Shown here one piece after another: positions 209-38,564 of a DNA stretch of 51,502 nucleotides; the stretch's first letter is position 1, and each line of letters starts with the position of its first letter. This DNA is from Escherichia coli (GTDB lineage: Bacteria > Pseudomonadota > Gammaproteobacteria > Enterobacterales > Enterobacteriaceae), in assembly GCF_003334255.1 (NCBI RefSeq), contig NZ_QOWU01000037.1; one strand, given 5' to 3'. The translations under genes were made by a program, and so were the position numbers. The notes beneath the pieces were generated by a model. The model saw only the letters and a program-made list of their open reading frames with translations. It ran no database searches and was not told where the DNA came from.

Positions 209-1078
<870 letters not shown>

Positions 1079-1097
1079 GTCTTTAAGTGATAAGCAT

Positions 1098-1136
1098 AAA
1101 CCGCAGCACGATCTTGCATACGACGTGCTACGGTTT
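1098..1136. terminator. Imperfect 13-bp hairpin between the convergent GIY-YIG and invertase genes (candidate shared terminator)
   Basis: aaaccgcagcacg (1098-1110) pairs with cgtgctacggttt (1124-1136) with one mismatch and a 13-nt loop. The flanks are only weakly T-rich. Confidence 0.35.
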
Positions 1137-1690
1137 CATTTATCTCCGACCGGAAACTTCTTATACAGTGTCGATATACCAACATCATAGATGATCGCCA
1201 CCTTCTGGCGAGGAACGCCTGATGCAATTAATCGCCCGGCCTGCGCCCATTGTTCTGGTGTAAGTTTGGGACGACGTCCACCAATTCGTCCCTGTGCGCG
1301 AGCAGCCTCCAGTCCAGCTTTTGTTCGTTCAACAATCAGTTCTCGTTCCATTTCAGCCAGGGCCCCCATCACATGAAAGAAAAAACGCCCCATCGGTGTG
1401 CTGGTATCAATAGCATCCGTCAGGCTGCGAAAATTAACGCCACGTTCGCGCAACTCCTCAACCAGAATGACCAGATGCCGCATACTACGCCCCAGCCGCT
1501 CCAGCTTCCAGACAACCAGAGTGTCACCTGCCGATAATGTCCTGAGCAGTTTTTTCAGTCCCGGCCTTTCGGACTTTGTACCGCTTATCTTGTCTTCAAA
1601 AATCAGCTCGCATCCTGCACAGTTCAGCGCATTACGTTGTAGATCTGTGTTCTGGTCATTTGTTGACACACGTACATAGCCAATAAGCAT
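1136..1690 (-). CDS. Serine DNA invertase, Pin/Gin/Cin/Hin (Din) family
   Basis: 184 aa starting MLIGYVRVSTNDQNTDLQRNAL..., with the catalytic Ser in the YVRVST motif and a C-terminal HTH (GISTLYKKF). An AGGGAG Shine-Dalgarno lies 8 nt upstream of the ATG at 1690. It sits next to tail-fibre cassettes as in e14, Mu and P1. Confidence 0.92.
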   Translation of the reverse strand: MLIGYVRVSTNDQNTDLQRNALNCAGCELIFEDKISGTKSERPGLKKLLRTLSAGDTLVVWKLERLGRSMRHLVILVEELRERGVNFRSLTDAIDTSTPMGRFFFHVMGALAEMERELIVERTKAGLEAARAQGRIGGRRPKLTPEQWAQAGRLIASGVPRQKVAIIYDVGISTLYKKFPVGDK

Positions 1691-1744
1691 GGTAGATCTC
1701 CCTGACAAAAGCAGGAATGATGCCATTTGCTTGTTATTTCTGCA

Positions 1745-1770
1745 TTTTCATAAACGTTGGTTTGGGAGAA
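1745..1770. promoter_or_regulatory. Invertase crossover site, invertase-proximal (hix/gix/pix-like)
   Basis: ttttcataaacgttggtttgggagaa. Its reverse complement, ttctcccaaaccaacgtttatgaaaa, matches the site at 3462-3487 and carries the AAACCNNGGTTT core typical of Din-family sites. Confidence 0.75.
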
Positions 1771-2130
1771 GCGGCAAGACGAAATGTGGGAACAGGGGAA
1801 AATCAGATACCGGACATGGCTTCATTTAGTGGGGTGAGGGATTATTACGGAAAACAACTTTTGCCAGGAGGGTTGATACTTCAGTGGCTGACGATTCCAT
1901 CAAGTGCAGCAGCCAACGCTGTAACACTGAATAATGGTAATTATCAGCTGTCAGGCTATAAATGGCCCCAGTCATTTGGTGTCCTGTTTGCTGTGTTTGC
2001 TACAAAAGTTTCTGGCTCGACTAACGAAGCATATGCAATCTCAGTTAATCGTCACTCTACCGATGTAATTGTCACCTGGAATGCCCGTAAGGCTGATGAT
2101 GTCCACATTTTAGGAATTGGGAAATTATGA
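1771..2130 (+). CDS. Alternative tail-fibre C-terminal cassette, silent in this orientation
   Basis: The reading frame is open from the crossover site, with the same LGLGEA codons at its 5' end. It has no start or promoter of its own and is followed by a coupled Tfa gene (ATGA overlap at 2127). Confidence 0.6.
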
Positions 2131-2546
2131 AAATGAAATGGTCACCATCTGTTCAGGGATTTTTCTCTGAAAATAACAGCGATATTCCCGATGATGCTTT
2201 CGATATTGAAGATGCTCTTTATTATGAACTTATGAATGGTCAGAGTACGGGGAAAATTATTATCAATAACCCGGATAACTACCCTGTACTTACTGAATAT
2301 CCAGCGAAGACACAGGAACAGGAAATAGCTGAAGCGGAGGGAATGAAAAGTATACTTATTGAACAGGCCAACGAATACATGAACAGTAAGCAATGGCCTG
2401 GTAAAGCCGCTATTGGTCGTCTGAAAGGTGAGGAACTGGCGCAATATAATTTGTGGCTGGATTACCTGGACGCACTGGAACTGGTCGATACTTCCGGTGC
2501 GCCAGATATTGAATGGCCTACGCCTCCGGCAGTTCAGGCCAGATGA
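2127..2546 (+). CDS. Tail fibre assembly protein (Tfa/U-like), partner of the silent cassette
   Basis: 139 aa. The C-terminal part, [47 protein letters not shown], is typical of the Tfa family. Confidence 0.8.
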
Positions 2547-2781
2547 CGTCCGGCGCGGTGCTGGTATCTGATTCCATCACCGCGTCGATATTACCAACAT
2601 CATATTCAGTCATTTCCGGTTCCGGTGGTGCTATAAACTCTCCGTCAGAATAGAACCAACCGACGCCTGCATCTATATGATCAATATTTATAATTTCGCA
2701 GTTAGAGAATAAATCACCCTCTCCATCCCAGATAATAATATTTTTCACCACGCCATGTTCAATCAGAGCAAAATTACTCAT
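2518..2781 (-). CDS. Short tail-fibre chaperone-like protein, partner of the expressed fibre tip
   Basis: 87 aa. It is translationally coupled to the fibre gene (start codon overlaps the fibre stop at 2781) and has a Tfa-like C-terminal motif, [13 protein letters not shown]. Confidence 0.55.
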   Translation of the reverse strand: MSNFALIEHGVVKNIIIWDGEGDLFSNCEIINIDHIDAGVGWFYSDGEFIAPPEPEMTEYDVGNIDAVMESDTSTAPDVIWPELPEA

Positions 2782-3764
2782 CAGGCATACTCCTCAACAA
2801 TAACTATTCCCGGGGCACCGTCACCTCCCGATTGAGCCTCACTTCCGGCAGGTGCGCAGGCTCCGCCTCCGCCAGCACCAAAGCCCTCAGCTTTACCACC
2901 ACCACGTCCGCTGAATGATGAAGAACTTGCACCACCTATACCGCCTGAACCTAGTGGTGTATCCCCCCCGGTACCACCTGCAACAGCTTTAACAGAGATA
3001 ACCATTGCTCCTGGTGTTTTTGCACTACAGCGAAATGCTCTTAGTACAGTACCGGACGATGTCGGACTGGCACCCCATGAAATACCCTGAATATATGATG
3101 TGTTTGCAGATGCTCCCCCCGCGCCACCGCCTGTACCACCCGGTGCAGTTATCAGGGAACCGAAATAAGTTGTGCCACCTTCACTACCTGAATTTCTTCC
3201 GGCTCCCCCCCCTTTACCTGCAGCACCGATAATAACGTTGACTTCGAAATCATTATCAACCTCGAAAAATGCTTCAATAAATGCACCGCTCAATCCAGCT
3301 CCGGCTGTTGCCTGCTGATTTTCTGTTGTTTCAGGAACCCCACCGCCGCCGCCACCGCCACCAGAGGCAATGACCCTTATCTTTTTTGTCCCTGGTGTTG
3401 GGATATATTTTCCAGAGCTTTTAAAAATATTCGTGTTTAACAAACGACCAGAGAATCTGGCTTCTCCCAAACCAAGGTTTTCGAGAGCCGTTTGCACAGT
3501 GCCATCCGATTTGATATCGCCAAACGGATTCTTGCGGCTTAACAGCAGCGCACGAAGTGCGGTAAGCATCTGGTCATGCCGCCCTTTCTCCAGGCTGGCA
3601 CCGGAGGCCTCCACCACGCTACAAAGTTCTTCCTGCAACATGTCAAAGTAGTCATCATCCAGATCGGTGGCAGGTGTGCCGGTCTGGGGGTTACCACGGG
3701 TAAAACCGTTCTTACCCGCGCCGAACTTATCCTTCTGCGCGGTTTTCGTGTCTATACGATGCAT
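2781..3764 (-). CDS. Tail fibre protein: conserved N-terminal constant part plus glycine-rich variable C-terminus
   Basis: The N-terminus [48 protein letters not shown] is typical of a prophage fibre N-domain. The C-terminal roughly 195 aa are dominated by Gly runs. Confidence 0.8.
3462..3487. promoter_or_regulatory. Invertase crossover site inside the tail-fibre gene (hix/gix/pix-like)
   Basis: ttctcccaaaccaaggttttcgagag. Two imperfectly symmetric 12-bp half-sites flank a central AA. It is inverted relative to 1745-1770 and encodes ..ENLGLGEA.. of the fibre. Confidence 0.75.
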
Positions 3765-3767
3765 GGA

Positions 3768-4352
3768 TTACTCCGGATATTTAAAAATTACGTAGGTATG
3801 CGAAGGGCAGAGTTTGTTAAGCACGCACTCGACAACGGTGTCGCCCCAGATACGCAGTGCGGAATCACAGGGATCGCCACATGTCATCCAGGTGGTGTTG
3901 GTGGCGGCTGGCATGTTGACCTGCCAGTAATACCGCCATTCCGGCGCATTCACTGCGTCAGTACAGGCCGATGAGCAGGTGAACGTGCTTTTATCGTATC
4001 GCGTGATAGTGGCGTCTGGTCTGCCCAGGGCAGCAAGCTGTGCAAGGTAAAAATCCTCATTGATGCCGCCCGCCAGATTAACCTTCGCATCCAGCCGTTG
4101 CTGACGCTGGCGAAGGGTCTGTGTCCCTGCGGGAATACATTCATCCGGCAGACCGCACAGACGCTCCCAGCGGTTTATCAGTTCAGTGGTGGTGCGCGGA
4201 TCCAGCTCCCGCATCAGGGCATCCGCACGCTGATGAACGCGGGTTAATGAAGGTGCCGCACCGGCAATCGCCGGATCGCTGGCTGACCATGCAGGACCGG
4301 GCGGCAACAGTGCCGATAACAGGCGGATGTAATCATCGTTTGTCACGTCCAT
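3768..4352 (-). CDS. Baseplate/tail protein, Mu gp48-like (DUF2313-type)
   Basis: 194 aa. It sits between the baseplate J-like gene and the fibre gene, and its start overlaps the upstream gene. Confidence 0.65.
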
Positions 4353-5401
4353 GAAATCGTCCCCAGAACCGCCAGTTCATTTTTTGCAATGGAGATATTG
4401 TCCGCCGGGGCAAGCAACTGATGGCTGTATTCCCCGTTCGCACCGGAAATCGCCTCACTGATACGCGATACCTTCAGTTCTCCCTGAGGATAACCATCAC
4501 GCAGCAGGAACGAACGCAACTCTGCGGTGATGGCAGCCCGTATTTCCGGTGTGTCCGGCGTCACGCGGATATGAAAATCCACTTTATGCGCCACCGGCCT
4601 GAATACATACAAATCAGAGCCTGCCACCGGGGCCAGTGGCTCAATGTGTTGTCTTGCCGCCGTTTCCGTTGATTCTTCCGGAATGGGATTAATCAGGTCA
4701 CTGCTGGCAATCATCACACCGACAGTTCCCGTTCCCATCCAGTGACGGTATGTCCATGCGCGGGTAATGCCGGGCACTTCTTTAGCCCAGACGACATAGT
4801 CCACGTCAGCCCCGCCCTGCGGCGTCCAGTAATACCGCTCAATGATGCGGGCGCGCCACGTTTCCAGATCTTCAGTATCAAATCCGCCTGTCAGGGTGTC
4901 AGCCACACCGGAAGACGGCAGACCATTCACCGGCGTGACCAGGATTAATGACGTACCGTCGTCAGCGTTACCGACCGCGCCTGAACTTGAGCAGGCGATC
5001 GGCACGCGCAGGACACCACCGGAGCTGGTTGCATCGGCAGTTGCCGTGTACTGAACCAGGTCATCGCGCTGAATAACACTCCCGGCGGTCACCTTCAGGC
5101 CATCGCTGACACCTTCCCAGCGCATATACCCGCTGGCAGCCGTGGCCCCCTTGCGCGGACACCGTTTCATCGCAGCATGTCGCGCCAGCCAGGACTCATC
5201 GCACAGGTCAGGCAGCATGTTCATTGCCAGATAATCGATGTAACCGTAAACCGTATGCAGCGCCGCCGCATACACCTTTGCCCGCACGTCTTCATCCATG
5301 CGCCGGAGCGTGTCGCTGACGTCCAGCCTGGCGAATAAATCGTTACGGAGCATACTGATATTTTCTGCCAGCGTCGGGCGCTGAAATTCACTGTCCGCCA
5401 T
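4343..5401 (-). CDS. Baseplate J-like protein (Mu gp47-like)
   Basis: 352 aa. Size and position are consistent with the Mu-type baseplate block. Confidence 0.75.
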
Positions 5402-5816
5402 GCGTTATCGCACTCCACAGATCATCAAAAGAAATCATTACCGGTCCGTCACGACGCCAGAGAGTGATACTGTTACCCAGTTCATTAATCCCGGTGCGGC
5501 GGATATCCAGATCAATACGGGACACCACGCCATCATCAATCATCCATTGCAGGCATTCGCGGATATACCCCCTTACCGTCTGCACCAGCTGATTGGTCAG
5601 TTTGCTGCGCTGAAGCAGCCACAGTCGGGAGCCGTAACGGTCATTCTGTACCGCAGGCCAGGTATCCCCCCACCATCCCATCGGGACGTCGGCGTTGTCA
5701 TCAGGCTCCGCCCGCCGCCAGGTAAACAGGGAAATCACCACGGAGCGGGTCAGCGGATCCAGCGGTGCGCTGGCGCAGGTGCGTTTACCGTTCACCGTCA
5801 GCCACAGTTCCATCAT
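5388..5816 (-). CDS. Baseplate protein, Mu gp46-like
   Basis: 142 aa. Its position is syntenic with Mu gp46, and its ends overlap the neighbouring genes, consistent with translational coupling. Confidence 0.65.
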   Translation of the reverse strand: MMELWLTVNGKRTCASAPLDPLTRSVVISLFTWRRAEPDDNADVPMGWWGDTWPAVQNDRYGSRLWLLQRSKLTNQLVQTVRGYIRECLQWMIDDGVVSRIDLDIRRTGINELGNSITLWRRDGPVMISFDDLWSAITHGGQ

Positions 5817-16405: not shown

Positions 16406-17092
16406 TTAGAAGTTCAGATTTTTCAGTGCATTCAGTGCAGAGCCCACATCCTCAGCGTCGCGCAGGGACAGTGCGCCATAGCCCCCGGCCATGAATGCTT
16501 TGGCCTGGGTACGGGAGAGTCCGACATCACGCAGGACTCTTTCGATTTTTTTCTGTTCGGGGATTTCCCCGCGGGCCAGCGCGTTCTTGACGTCGCTGAT
16601 CCGCGCCTCGTCGTTAGACGGAAACGTCACCAGACTGACTTCCCAGAGGTCGATTTCTTTCAACAGAAAGGCTTCTTTGCTCCGGTCGTATTCCCAGTCT
16701 TTCAGGACGTACCCAATAGAAAGGCCGGTTAACGAACCGGCCTTCATGTGTGCATGTGCGCGTTTTGCGAGGGGATCATCATCAATAAGCAACCGTCCCC
16801 TGACGTAAAGCCCGACATCGTCTTCCTTCATTTCGGTGTAAACACCGATGGGTTCATCCATGCGGTGCTGCCAGAGCAGCGCAGGTAACGCTTTTCTGTC
16901 ACTCCACGCCCGCAGGGAAGCAGCAAATGCCCCGGACATCACCACATCATCGTGGCTGTCCTTTACACCAAAGACGGAGCCATACCCTTCAAACTCACCG
17001 GAGTCACTGACAGATTTCAGACTCAGCGGTACATCAAGACGTTGTTTCGTCTGCATTGGCGTTATCCTTCTGCTTACCGGCTTTACTGCCAT
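16406..17092 (-). CDS. Prohead serine protease, HK97 family
   Basis: The GEFEGYGSVFGVKDSHDDVV motif. The true start may be the internal Met at 17056. Confidence 0.85.
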   Translation of the reverse strand: MAVKPVSRRITPMQTKQRLDVPLSLKSVSDSGEFEGYGSVFGVKDSHDDVVMSGAFAASLRAWSDRKALPALLWQHRMDEPIGVYTEMKEDDVGLYVRGRLLIDDDPLAKRAHAHMKAGSLTGLSIGYVLKDWEYDRSKEAFLLKEIDLWEVSLVTFPSNDEARISDVKNALARGEIPEQKKIERVLRDVGLSRTQAKAFMAGGYGALSLRDAEDVGSALNALKNLNF

Positions 17093-21694: not shown

Positions 21695-21988
21695 ATGAAA
21701 AAAATGTTGTTTTCTGCCGCTCTGGCAATGCTTATTACAGGATGTGCTCAACAGACGTTTACTGTTGGAAACAAACCGACAGCAGTAACGCCAAAGGAAA
21801 CCATCACCCATCATTTCTTCGTTTCGGGAATTGGACAGGAGAAAACTGTTGATGCAGCCAAAATTTGTGGCGGCGCAGAAAATGTTGTTAAAACAGAAAC
21901 CCAGCAAACATTCGTAAATGGATTGCTCGGTTTTATTACTTTAGGCATTTATACTCCGCTGGAAGCGCGTGTGTATTGCTCACAATAA
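21695..21988 (+). CDS. bor: Bor lipoprotein (serum-resistance moron)
   Basis: MKKMLFSAALAMLITGCAQQTFTVGNKPTAV... includes the lipobox LITGC and is near-identical to lambda/DLP12 Bor as recalled. Confidence 0.9.
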   Translation: MKKMLFSAALAMLITGCAQQTFTVGNKPTAVTPKETITHHFFVSGIGQEKTVDAAKICGGAENVVKTETQQTFVNGLLGFITLGIYTPLEARVYCSQ

Positions 21989-23778: not shown

Positions 23779-24861
23779 ATGAAAAAATTAACAGTGGCAA
23801 TTTCTGCTGTAGCTGCATCAGTACTGATGGCGATGTCTGCTCAGGCAGCTGAAATTTATAATAAAGACAGTAACAAGCTGGATCTGTACGGGAAAGTTAA
23901 TGCTAAGCACTACTTCTCCTCTAATGATGCAGATGATGGTGATACTACTTATGCCCGTCTTGGCTTCAAAGGTGAAACCCAAATCAACGATCAACTGACT
24001 GGTTTCGGTCAGTGGGAATATGAATTCAAAGGCAACCGCGCTGAATCTCAAGGTTCCTCCAAAGATAAAACCCGTCTTGCCTTCGCTGGCCTGAAATTCG
24101 GTGACTACGGCTCCATCGATTACGGCCGTAACTACGGTGTAGCATACGACATCGGTGCGTGGACTGACGTCCTGCCAGAATTCGGTGGTGACACTTGGAC
24201 TCAAACAGATGTGTTCATGACTGGTCGCACCACTGGTGTTGCAACTTATCGTAACAACGACTTCTTTGGTCTGGTTGATGGTCTGAACTTTGCTGCTCAG
24301 TATCAGGGTAAAAATGACCGCACTGACGTAACTGAAGCTAATGGTGATGGTTTCGGTTTCTCCACTACTTATGAGTATGAAGGATTCGGTGTAGGTGCAA
24401 CCTATGCTAAATCTGATCGCACTAATAATCAGGTTATCTACGGTAACAACGGTCTGAATGCTTCTGGTCAAAATGCTGAAGTATGGGCAGCTGGTCTGAA
24501 ATATGATGCGAACAACATCTATCTGGCCACCACCTATTCTGAAACCCAGAACATGACTGTTTTTGGTAATAACCATATTGCCAACAAAGCACAAAACTTC
24601 GAAGCTGTTGCACAATATCAGTTCGACTTCGGCCTGCGTCCATCCGTTGCTTACCTGCATTCTAAAGGAAAAGACTTGGGTGTTTGGGGTGATCAGGACC
24701 TGGTTGAATATGTTGATGTAGGTGCAACCTATTACTTCAACAAAAATATGTCCACTTTTGTTGACTACAAAATCAACCTGATTGATAAGAGCGATTTCAC
24801 GAAAGCATCTGGCGTTGCTACCGATGATATCGTTGCTGTAGGTATGGTTTACCAGTTCTAA
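23779..24861 (+). CDS. nmpC: Phage-borne general porin (NmpC/Lc family moron)
   Basis: Signal peptide followed by [17 protein letters not shown]... and a C-terminal VGMVYQF. It is a paralogue of PhoE at 41335-42390. Confidence 0.9.
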
Positions 24862-38488: not shown

Positions 38489-38564
38489 TGGTGCCGATAA
38501 TAGGAGTCGAACCTACGACCTTCGCATTACGAATGCGCTGCTCTACCAACTGAGCTATATCGGC
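38489..38564 (-). tRNA. thrW: tRNA-Thr (anticodon CGT)
   Basis: The reverse complement, GCCGATATAGCTCAGTTGGTAGAGCAGCGCATTCGTAATGCGAAGGTCGTAGGTTCGACTCCTATTATCGGCACCA, folds as a cloverleaf with a TTCGTAA anticodon loop and a CCA end. Confidence 0.95.

Follow-up and report, generated by a model that had tools for sequence, protein, structure and literature searches.

The DNA considered here is a stretch of 51,502 nucleotides (nt) from Escherichia coli (contig NZ_QOWU01000037.1 of assembly GCF_003334255.1), referred to below as the window, in which the end of a prophage tail-fibre gene lies within a segment bounded by two inverted 26-base-pair (bp) sites, the pix sites, and adjoined by a DNA invertase gene, pin. 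The segment carries two fibre tips that converge from opposite ends, each with its own helper gene behind it, and in the orientation of the window the glycine-rich tip is the one joined to the constant shaft of the fibre. A preliminary description, made from the letters of the DNA, had proposed that this arrangement is a tail-fibre switch driven by the invertase. The features of the locus are collected in Table 1.

Table 1. Features of the invertible tail-fibre locus and its immediate neighbours in the window
Feature	Position	Strand	Remarks
pin, small serine DNA invertase, 184 amino acids (aa)	1136..1690	-	Resolvase E=5.8e-51 and HTH_7 E=5e-13; outside the invertible segment
Candidate recombinational enhancer, 5' end of pin	1606..1669		two Fis-like 15-mers, 1655-1669 and 1606-1620; putative
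Pin-proximal open reading frame (ORF): 18-aa leader and tip B	1717..2130	+	leader resembles the K-12 StfE leader; ATG-initiated, spans the 1745-1770 site
pix, pin-proximal	1745..1770	-	minus strand = TTCTCCCAAACC AA CGTTTATGAAAA; identical to the K-12 e14 site next to pinE
Invertible segment, 1,717 bp between core dinucleotides	1758..3474		flip restores a single alignment with E. coli G1/2
Tip B, gp53-like, 119 aa, currently unexpressed	1771-2130	+	phrog_2557 C-terminus E=2.3e-30; weak PF21882 Gp53-like_C, below the curated cut-off
Tfa of tip B, 139 aa	2127..2546	+	Caudo_TAP E=2.6e-23; phrog_188 E=2.3e-51; start overlaps the tip B stop (ATGA)
Conserved segment centre	2391..2589		convergent 3' ends of both chaperone genes, overlap 2518-2546 (29 bp, opposite strands)
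Tfa-like partner of the glycine-rich tip, 87 aa	2518..2781	-	phrog_14370 (residues 1-56) and Tfa C-terminal tail
Expressed tail fibre, 327 aa	2781..3764	-	constant shaft, codons 1-97 = 3474-3764; glycine-rich tip = 2781-3461
pix, fibre-internal	3462..3487	+	TTCTCCCAAACC AA GGTTTTCGAGAG; identical to the K-12 e14 site inside ycfK/stfP
YmfQ / Mu gp48-like baseplate protein	3768..4352	-	PF10076 Phage_Mu_Gp48 E=9.4e-27; ymfQ in close relatives

The preliminary description had placed the two sites, in inverted orientation, at 1745-1770 on the pin side (TTTTCATAAACGTTGGTTTGGGAGAA) and at 3462-3487 on the fibre side (TTCTCCCAAACCAAGGTTTTCGAGAG), and the letters at both places were as described. Compared in inverted orientation, the two sites are identical across TTCTCCCAAACCAA-N-GTTT, and they form the top inverted repeat of the region 1000-4500 (21 nt, 95%). 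Using the 19-nt pattern TTCTCCCAAACCAASGTTT and allowing up to 2 mismatches, we retrieved from the whole 51.5 kilobases (kb) only these two places, and 0 of 100 shuffled sequences gave any match; a looser search of the window with the 14-nt inner arm again returned the same two sites only. The element is therefore a two-site switch, and a multi-site shufflon of the Min type, which we also considered, was rejected on the outcome of both searches. Each site is built as 12 + 2 + 12, with AA/TT as central dinucleotide. The AAACC-NN-GGTTT core, by which they had been described as crossover sites of the Din type, agrees with that of Mu gix and with that of the repeats given in PMC12529663 for the K-12 prophage e14. 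The assignment proved true, as both 26-mers match base for base the sites of the e14 P segment (positions 5606-5631 and 3779-3804 of the e14 stretch), which have been inverted experimentally; here identity was judged against the K-12 e14 DNA itself rather than against published pix names or tables. The fibre-side site falls, as had been stated, within the fibre ORF at ENLGLGEA, that is, in codons E95-A102 of the 327-aa protein, and the other site lies 54 nt away from the ATG of pin (position 1690).

The attribution of pin to the Pin/Gin family was borne out by its domains and by its relatives. The ORF is intact, and at the aa level its product is 94.6% identical to PinE of K-12 and 76.6% identical to Gin of Mu; the Gin crystal structure 3UJ3 matches residues 1-181 (E=3.7e-93), aligned residue for residue, and Ser9 aligns with the catalytic Ser9 of Gin. 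Residues K46/K47/R50 and Q150/R153/L154 make up the signature of the Fis/enhancer-dependent invertases (Pin numbering is that of Hin minus 1), the Hin residues K47, K/R48, K/R51, Q151, R154 and L155 being conserved in Fis/enhancer-dependent invertases only (McLean et al., PMC3798978). A dependence of Pin on Fis and on an enhancer is suggested by this signature, and a candidate enhancer can be pointed to at the 5' end of the gene, where Fis-like 15-mers of the form G-N13-C occupy pin nt 22-36 and 71-85, positions that are shared by K-12 pinE, Mu gin and one P2-like invertase gene. Within the first 180 nt, pin and K-12 pinE differ at 3 positions. About 95 bp separate the centre of the proximal 15-mer from that of the crossover, and in the native Hin arrangement the enhancer site is about 100 bp from the crossover (PMC3798978). 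Neither 15-mer agrees in full with the Fis motif (PMC4784862), one having a G/C-rich centre and the other being without pyrimidine-purine (Y-R) steps.

On the other side of the segment, the fibre gene follows directly on the YmfQ-like gene and is also preceded by a Baseplate_J gene, and the late operon that includes the YmfQ-like gene reads into the switch. Residues 1-102 of the fibre are identical to those of K-12 StfP at 100 of 102 positions. Over its C-terminal two thirds, which we call tip A, the fibre has a match to the glycine-rich domain PF21722 of Pfam that exceeds the curated cut-off. This tip matches the tail-fibre fold of a solved structure (Pam3-fibre-like), an AlphaFold model made from 38 homologues has good confidence in the tip region, and 261 predicted viral proteins match it at E<=0.001, the tail fibre of phage Goslar included. 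Identical copies of tip A in the protein database are joined to varied N-termini, in proteins of 243 (the pin-proximal form), 327, 325, 343, 362 and 389 aa. The two tips of the segment had been called very different in type, and indeed tip A and tip B are unrelated: no similarity could be detected between them (best E=3). A search of NCBIfam returned no specific hit to the cargo proteins.

Each tip is coupled to a helper gene. The start of the 87-aa ORF overlaps the fibre stop codon by one base, the last, and its product and the 139-aa Tfa are alike only over their last ~30 residues. It has 32% identity, over its full length, to gp089 of phage Goslar, annotated as tail fibre assembly, whose gene stands directly after that of the Goslar glycine-rich fibre gp090; this conserved pairing with a glycine-rich fibre supports a helper role for the 87-aa protein, and both helpers would act as chaperones of the tips that they follow. 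We also considered that the 87-aa ORF might be a dead, truncated Tfa, and rejected this, as the ORF is conserved, its start is coupled to the stop codon of the fibre gene, and in Goslar a homologue of full length stands beside a glycine-rich fibre.

Inverting positions 1758-3474 in silico produces an uninterrupted, in-frame fibre of 220 aa, and this same fibre is annotated as a coding sequence in E. coli G1/2. The plus-strand cassette opens with the same GLGEA codons as the region of the fibre site; in either orientation the tip is fused in frame to the constant part and followed by its coupled helper gene. The in silico inversion thus confirmed that the alternative cassette is in frame, as the preliminary description had claimed. 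The exchange that it had foreseen, of the fibre end and the 87-aa helper for an alternative tip and a 139-aa Tfa, also stands, with corrections to sizes and positions: the alternative tip consists of 119 aa and a stop codon. Replacement had been set at about residue 98; physically, the DNA is indeed exchanged within codon 97, but the first residue of the protein to change is 103.

The strongest evidence for activity of the switch is comparative and comes from different genomes. Once flipped, the window aligns with E. coli G1/2 (NZ_CP060083.1) in one alignment of 49,749 bp, at 99.992% identity, with 2 mismatches and 2 gaps; by contrast, the unflipped window gives three alignments, with breaks at 1752-1772 and 3460-3480. 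As a single alignment is obtained only after the flip, one lineage exists in both states, and the flipped form anticipated in the preliminary description is thereby found in a genome that is almost the same. Two sister isolates, G6/7 and G8, have the segment flipped as well, and NZ_LR882050.1 is in the state of the window. G1/2, G6/7 and G8 are human gut isolates from Germany, and from these the window is separated by 4 changes in 50 kb and the flip, which suggests that it may come from the same strain lineage. We then counted the two junctions in 5,426 complete genomes of E. coli: 3 have the constant part joined to the glycine-rich tip and 12 have it joined to the gp53-like tip, and about 1,900-2,000 contain the constant part with homology that goes no further than the site. 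Judging from these comparisons, the switch is probably active.

The surrounding DNA is that of a prophage inserted at tRNA-Thr(CGT) (thrW), next to proA, with the tRNA gene and the integrase at one prophage end (38489-38564). In the best database match of full length, the genes are called pinE / stfP / ymfQ, the names used in the K-12 cryptic prophage e14. Near-identical genomes annotate an integrase, a lambdoid early region, lysis genes, a terminase, an HK97-type head and a contractile tail of the Mu/SfV type, and the large late ORFs are all open in the window. With its late ORFs open and full phage modules, a role of the switch in virion host range is therefore plausible here, unlike in the K-12 remnant, and the prophage may be inducible.

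We are highly confident that the locus is an inversion switch of the Din family, of the Pin/pix type, the same system as the P segment of K-12 e14, in an apparently complete SfV/e14-like prophage at thrW. The mechanism is the classical one of the Din family, and the feature is not new, being the known Pin system. Knowledge of both the mechanism and the class goes back to the 1980s. The preliminary description had presented a switch attached to an SfV-like phage; the setting is right, but there is no new attachment, because e14 is itself a remnant of this type of phage (SfV/SfI-like; PMC3636060) and the switch is the e14 P-segment system itself. In the scheme that we propose, the late operon would be read through the constant codons 1-97 of the fibre gene and on into the segment of 1,717 bp. 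Both 26-bp sites would be bound by Pin dimers, and an enhancer in the 5' end of pin, bound by Fis, would assist cutting at the central AA and rotation, as expected by homology. In the orientation of the window the product would be the 327-aa fibre, with a glycine-rich, Pam3-fibre-like tip and the 87-aa Tfa-like helper; after inversion it would be the 220-aa fibre, with the gp53-like tip and the 139-aa Tfa. The predicted outcome is two virion populations with differing receptor specificity, and hence a change of receptor or host range with the flip.

Several points weigh against this reading. The enhancer is a candidate placed by homology. A promoter and terminator scan of 1000-4000 did no better than shuffles and gave none for pin above chance. 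The second copy of the attachment site is missing from the window, where no repeat of at least 14 nt of the tRNA-Thr region was found. Ongoing switching in this strain would be deduced from two assemblies of one lineage, and the other Pin-like invertases of the genome could flip the segment in trans.

The switch might also, or mainly, serve the lysogen, the pin-proximal ORF being made as a free tip without a shaft that masks receptors and blocks other phages. The ORF at 1717-2130 is initiated by an ATG, runs across the pin-proximal site and has an 18-aa leader nearly identical to that of K-12 StfE, and a K-12 chimera at the same position (StfE2 of e14) is reported to block adsorption of T2 (PMC12529663); moreover, the commonest form of tip A in the protein database is the 243-aa pin-proximal one. 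By contrast, no promoter above chance was found upstream of 1717, such an ORF arises from any in-frame crossover site, Mu having one too, and the classical virion role suffices for a prophage that, unlike e14, looks complete. We therefore regard a lysogen function as rather unlikely, and give an equally small chance to the more specific proposal that whichever tip faces pin, together with its helper, would be made in the lysogen from the 18-aa leader and would coat or mask a host receptor. If this were true, one flip would alter the host range of the virion and the resistance spectrum of the lysogen together, and the 2025 report on K-12 StfE2 (PMC12529663) would be extended to intact prophages and to the glycine-rich tip.

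It is very improbable that the locus is a fossil, in which the sites and the invertase gene have been kept, inversion has ceased, and the difference in orientation is old or was made elsewhere. Such a view can draw on the enhancer being a candidate, on the scan that gave no pin promoter above chance and on the evidence for this strain coming from an assembly, but the window and G1/2 have opposite orientations at only 2 mismatches and 2 gaps in ~50 kb, so that the flip must be very recent, and the invertase ORF, Ser9, the Fis-contact residues and both sites are all intact. That RecA-dependent recombination between the short inverted repeats, or faulty assembly, produced the orientation difference deserves hardly any credence: the repeats do share 14 identical bases (21 nt at 95%) and assemblers can misorient segments bounded by repeats, but 14-21 bp is far under the length of an efficient RecA substrate, the breakpoints are canonical 26-bp Din-type sites beside an intact invertase, several complete genomes, independent of one another, show this flip, and it has been verified experimentally for the identical K-12 sites (PMC12529663, PMC4272514).

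The Pin/pix switch is thus the reading that we retain, and its cargo can be followed from one prophage to another. The cargo of the K-12 P segment has only positions 2391-2589 in common with that of the window, at 85% (94% within a core of 145 bp); the tips and the greater part of each helper gene are different, and the two helpers end in C-terminal peptides identical to the ones in TfaP and TfaE of K-12. ECE228 (NZ_CP196312.1) has the same flanks and the same glycine-rich half with a different other half, homology resuming at 2537, and one P2-like prophage shares 1152-2589 only. The breakpoints of these half-cassette exchanges (2537 and 2589) fall in the conserved centre, and the two halves of the cargo are exchanged independently around it. 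The whole segment is common to SfV/e14-like and P2-like prophages (>99%), which shows how tail-fibre cargo moves and is useful wherever the host range of temperate coliphages is to be predicted or engineered. The locus opens no new question; it offers what we read as a clean natural host-range switch, seen in both states within one lineage.

Public annotation of these genes is affected by their arrangement. In the RefSeq records NZ_LR882050.1 and NZ_CP196312.1, the constant part alone is annotated as a truncated 'stfP' pseudogene that ends exactly at the crossover site, and the glycine-rich tip is left unannotated despite the intact 327-aa ORF. In the flipped genomes, the 87-aa ORF is cut down to a 72-bp 'partial phage tail protein' annotation. 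This annotation artefact is systematic at invertible fibre genes.

Elsewhere in the window, a plus-strand gene at 305-1078 encodes a LEM-3-like GIY-YIG protein of 257 aa (PF22945; phrog_5356 E=2e-143), at the accessory position beyond pin that is occupied by mcrA in e14 and by gtr genes in SfV. No match was identified for positions 1-300, and in G1/2 a frameshifted transposase is found just past the left end of the window. By transfer from the annotation of G1/2, we located iss, for a serum-survival lipoprotein, at about 21695-21988 (+) and a gene for an OmpC-like porin at about 23779-24861 (+), both between the lysis and antiterminator regions. The early region is lambdoid (gam/bet/exo, P, ren, nin and quuD), and the close relative NZ_LR882050.1 has another early region and another tape-measure gene. 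The prophage is a mosaic.

Among known systems, the e14 P segment has to be considered first. Plasterk and van de Putte reportedly described it, as an invertible segment with its invertase PinE, in 1985. It measures 1,797 bp, has the repeats TTGGTTTGGGAGAAGG and has been inverted experimentally by PinE, PinQ and PinR (PMC12529663), and both of its states coexist in cultures of K-12 MG1655 (PMC4272514). The window and e14 share the gene order ymfQ, constant part of the fibre, tip-tfa / tfa-tip, pin, with an almost unchanged spacer between pin and its site; the sites are identical, the invertase (94.6%) and the constant part of the fibre (100/102) nearly so, and the same two Tfa C-termini meet in the conserved centre. 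By contrast, the K-12 cargo consists of the StfP tip with TfaP and of TfaE with StfE in 1,797 bp, whereas here a glycine-rich tip with an 87-aa helper and another gp53-like tip with a 139-aa Tfa occupy 1,717 bp. Moreover, e14 is a remnant at icd with mcrA beyond pinE, whereas the prophage of the window is full length, sits at thrW and has the GIY-YIG gene beyond pin.

The G segment of Mu has the same plan, with a constant Sc followed by Sv-U and an inverted U'-S'v, the invertase outside the segment and the crossover point within the ORF of the fibre. The invertase of the window and Gin have 76.6% identity, and gix shares the AAACC-NN-GGTTT core. However, the arms of the sites differ, the core dinucleotide is GA in gix and AA here, the segment is 3 kb long in Mu and 1.7 kb here, and the fibres and chaperones are unrelated in their tips.

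The Shigella phages SfV, SfI, SfII and SfIV resemble the window in the baseplate and in the constant part of the fibre, which are 95-98% identical up to the crossover site. Compared with SfV, the window has 94-98% identity over the terminase, tail, baseplate and integrase, and homology stops exactly at 3460, at the crossover site. In SfV (NC_003444.1), orf21 contains one identical 26-bp site, at about 16950-16975, followed by a sequence like that of tip B. Unlike the window, these four phages are without an invertase, a second site and a cassette, so their fibre is fixed, and gtr serotype-conversion genes replace pin and the GIY-YIG gene. The single site of SfV is either the orphan of a lost switch or a docking point for gaining one.

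In P2-like prophages, phase variation has been described (PMC4272514). Those of NZ_CP138217.1 and NZ_CP126602.1 carry the same 1.73-kb cargo as the window, at 99.3-99.7%, with identical inner half-sites; their copies lie between gpH and the sheath gene (NZ_CP138217.1 stretch 3489-5228, NZ_CP126602.1 stretch 3489-5230). They differ from the window in having a 473-aa shaft of the gpH type, other outer half-sites, a diverged invertase (83.7% aa, ~81.5% nt) and a P2-like backbone. More widely, the C segment of P1 with Cin, Min of p15B, Hin of Salmonella and Fin of Fels-2 belong to the same group of Fis/enhancer-dependent small serine invertases acting on 26-bp sites. Members of this family measure about 185-195 aa, with the serine nucleophile in an N-terminal catalytic domain and a helix-turn-helix domain at the C-terminus; their sites have imperfect 12-bp half-sites on either side of a 2-bp core common to both, the enhancer, natively in the 5' part of the invertase gene, has two Fis sites in cis, and the invertases can replace one another and depend on Fis and supercoiling. 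P1 and p15B likewise switch fibre tips, Min doing so at multiple sites, and Hin inverts a promoter, not the end of a coding sequence.

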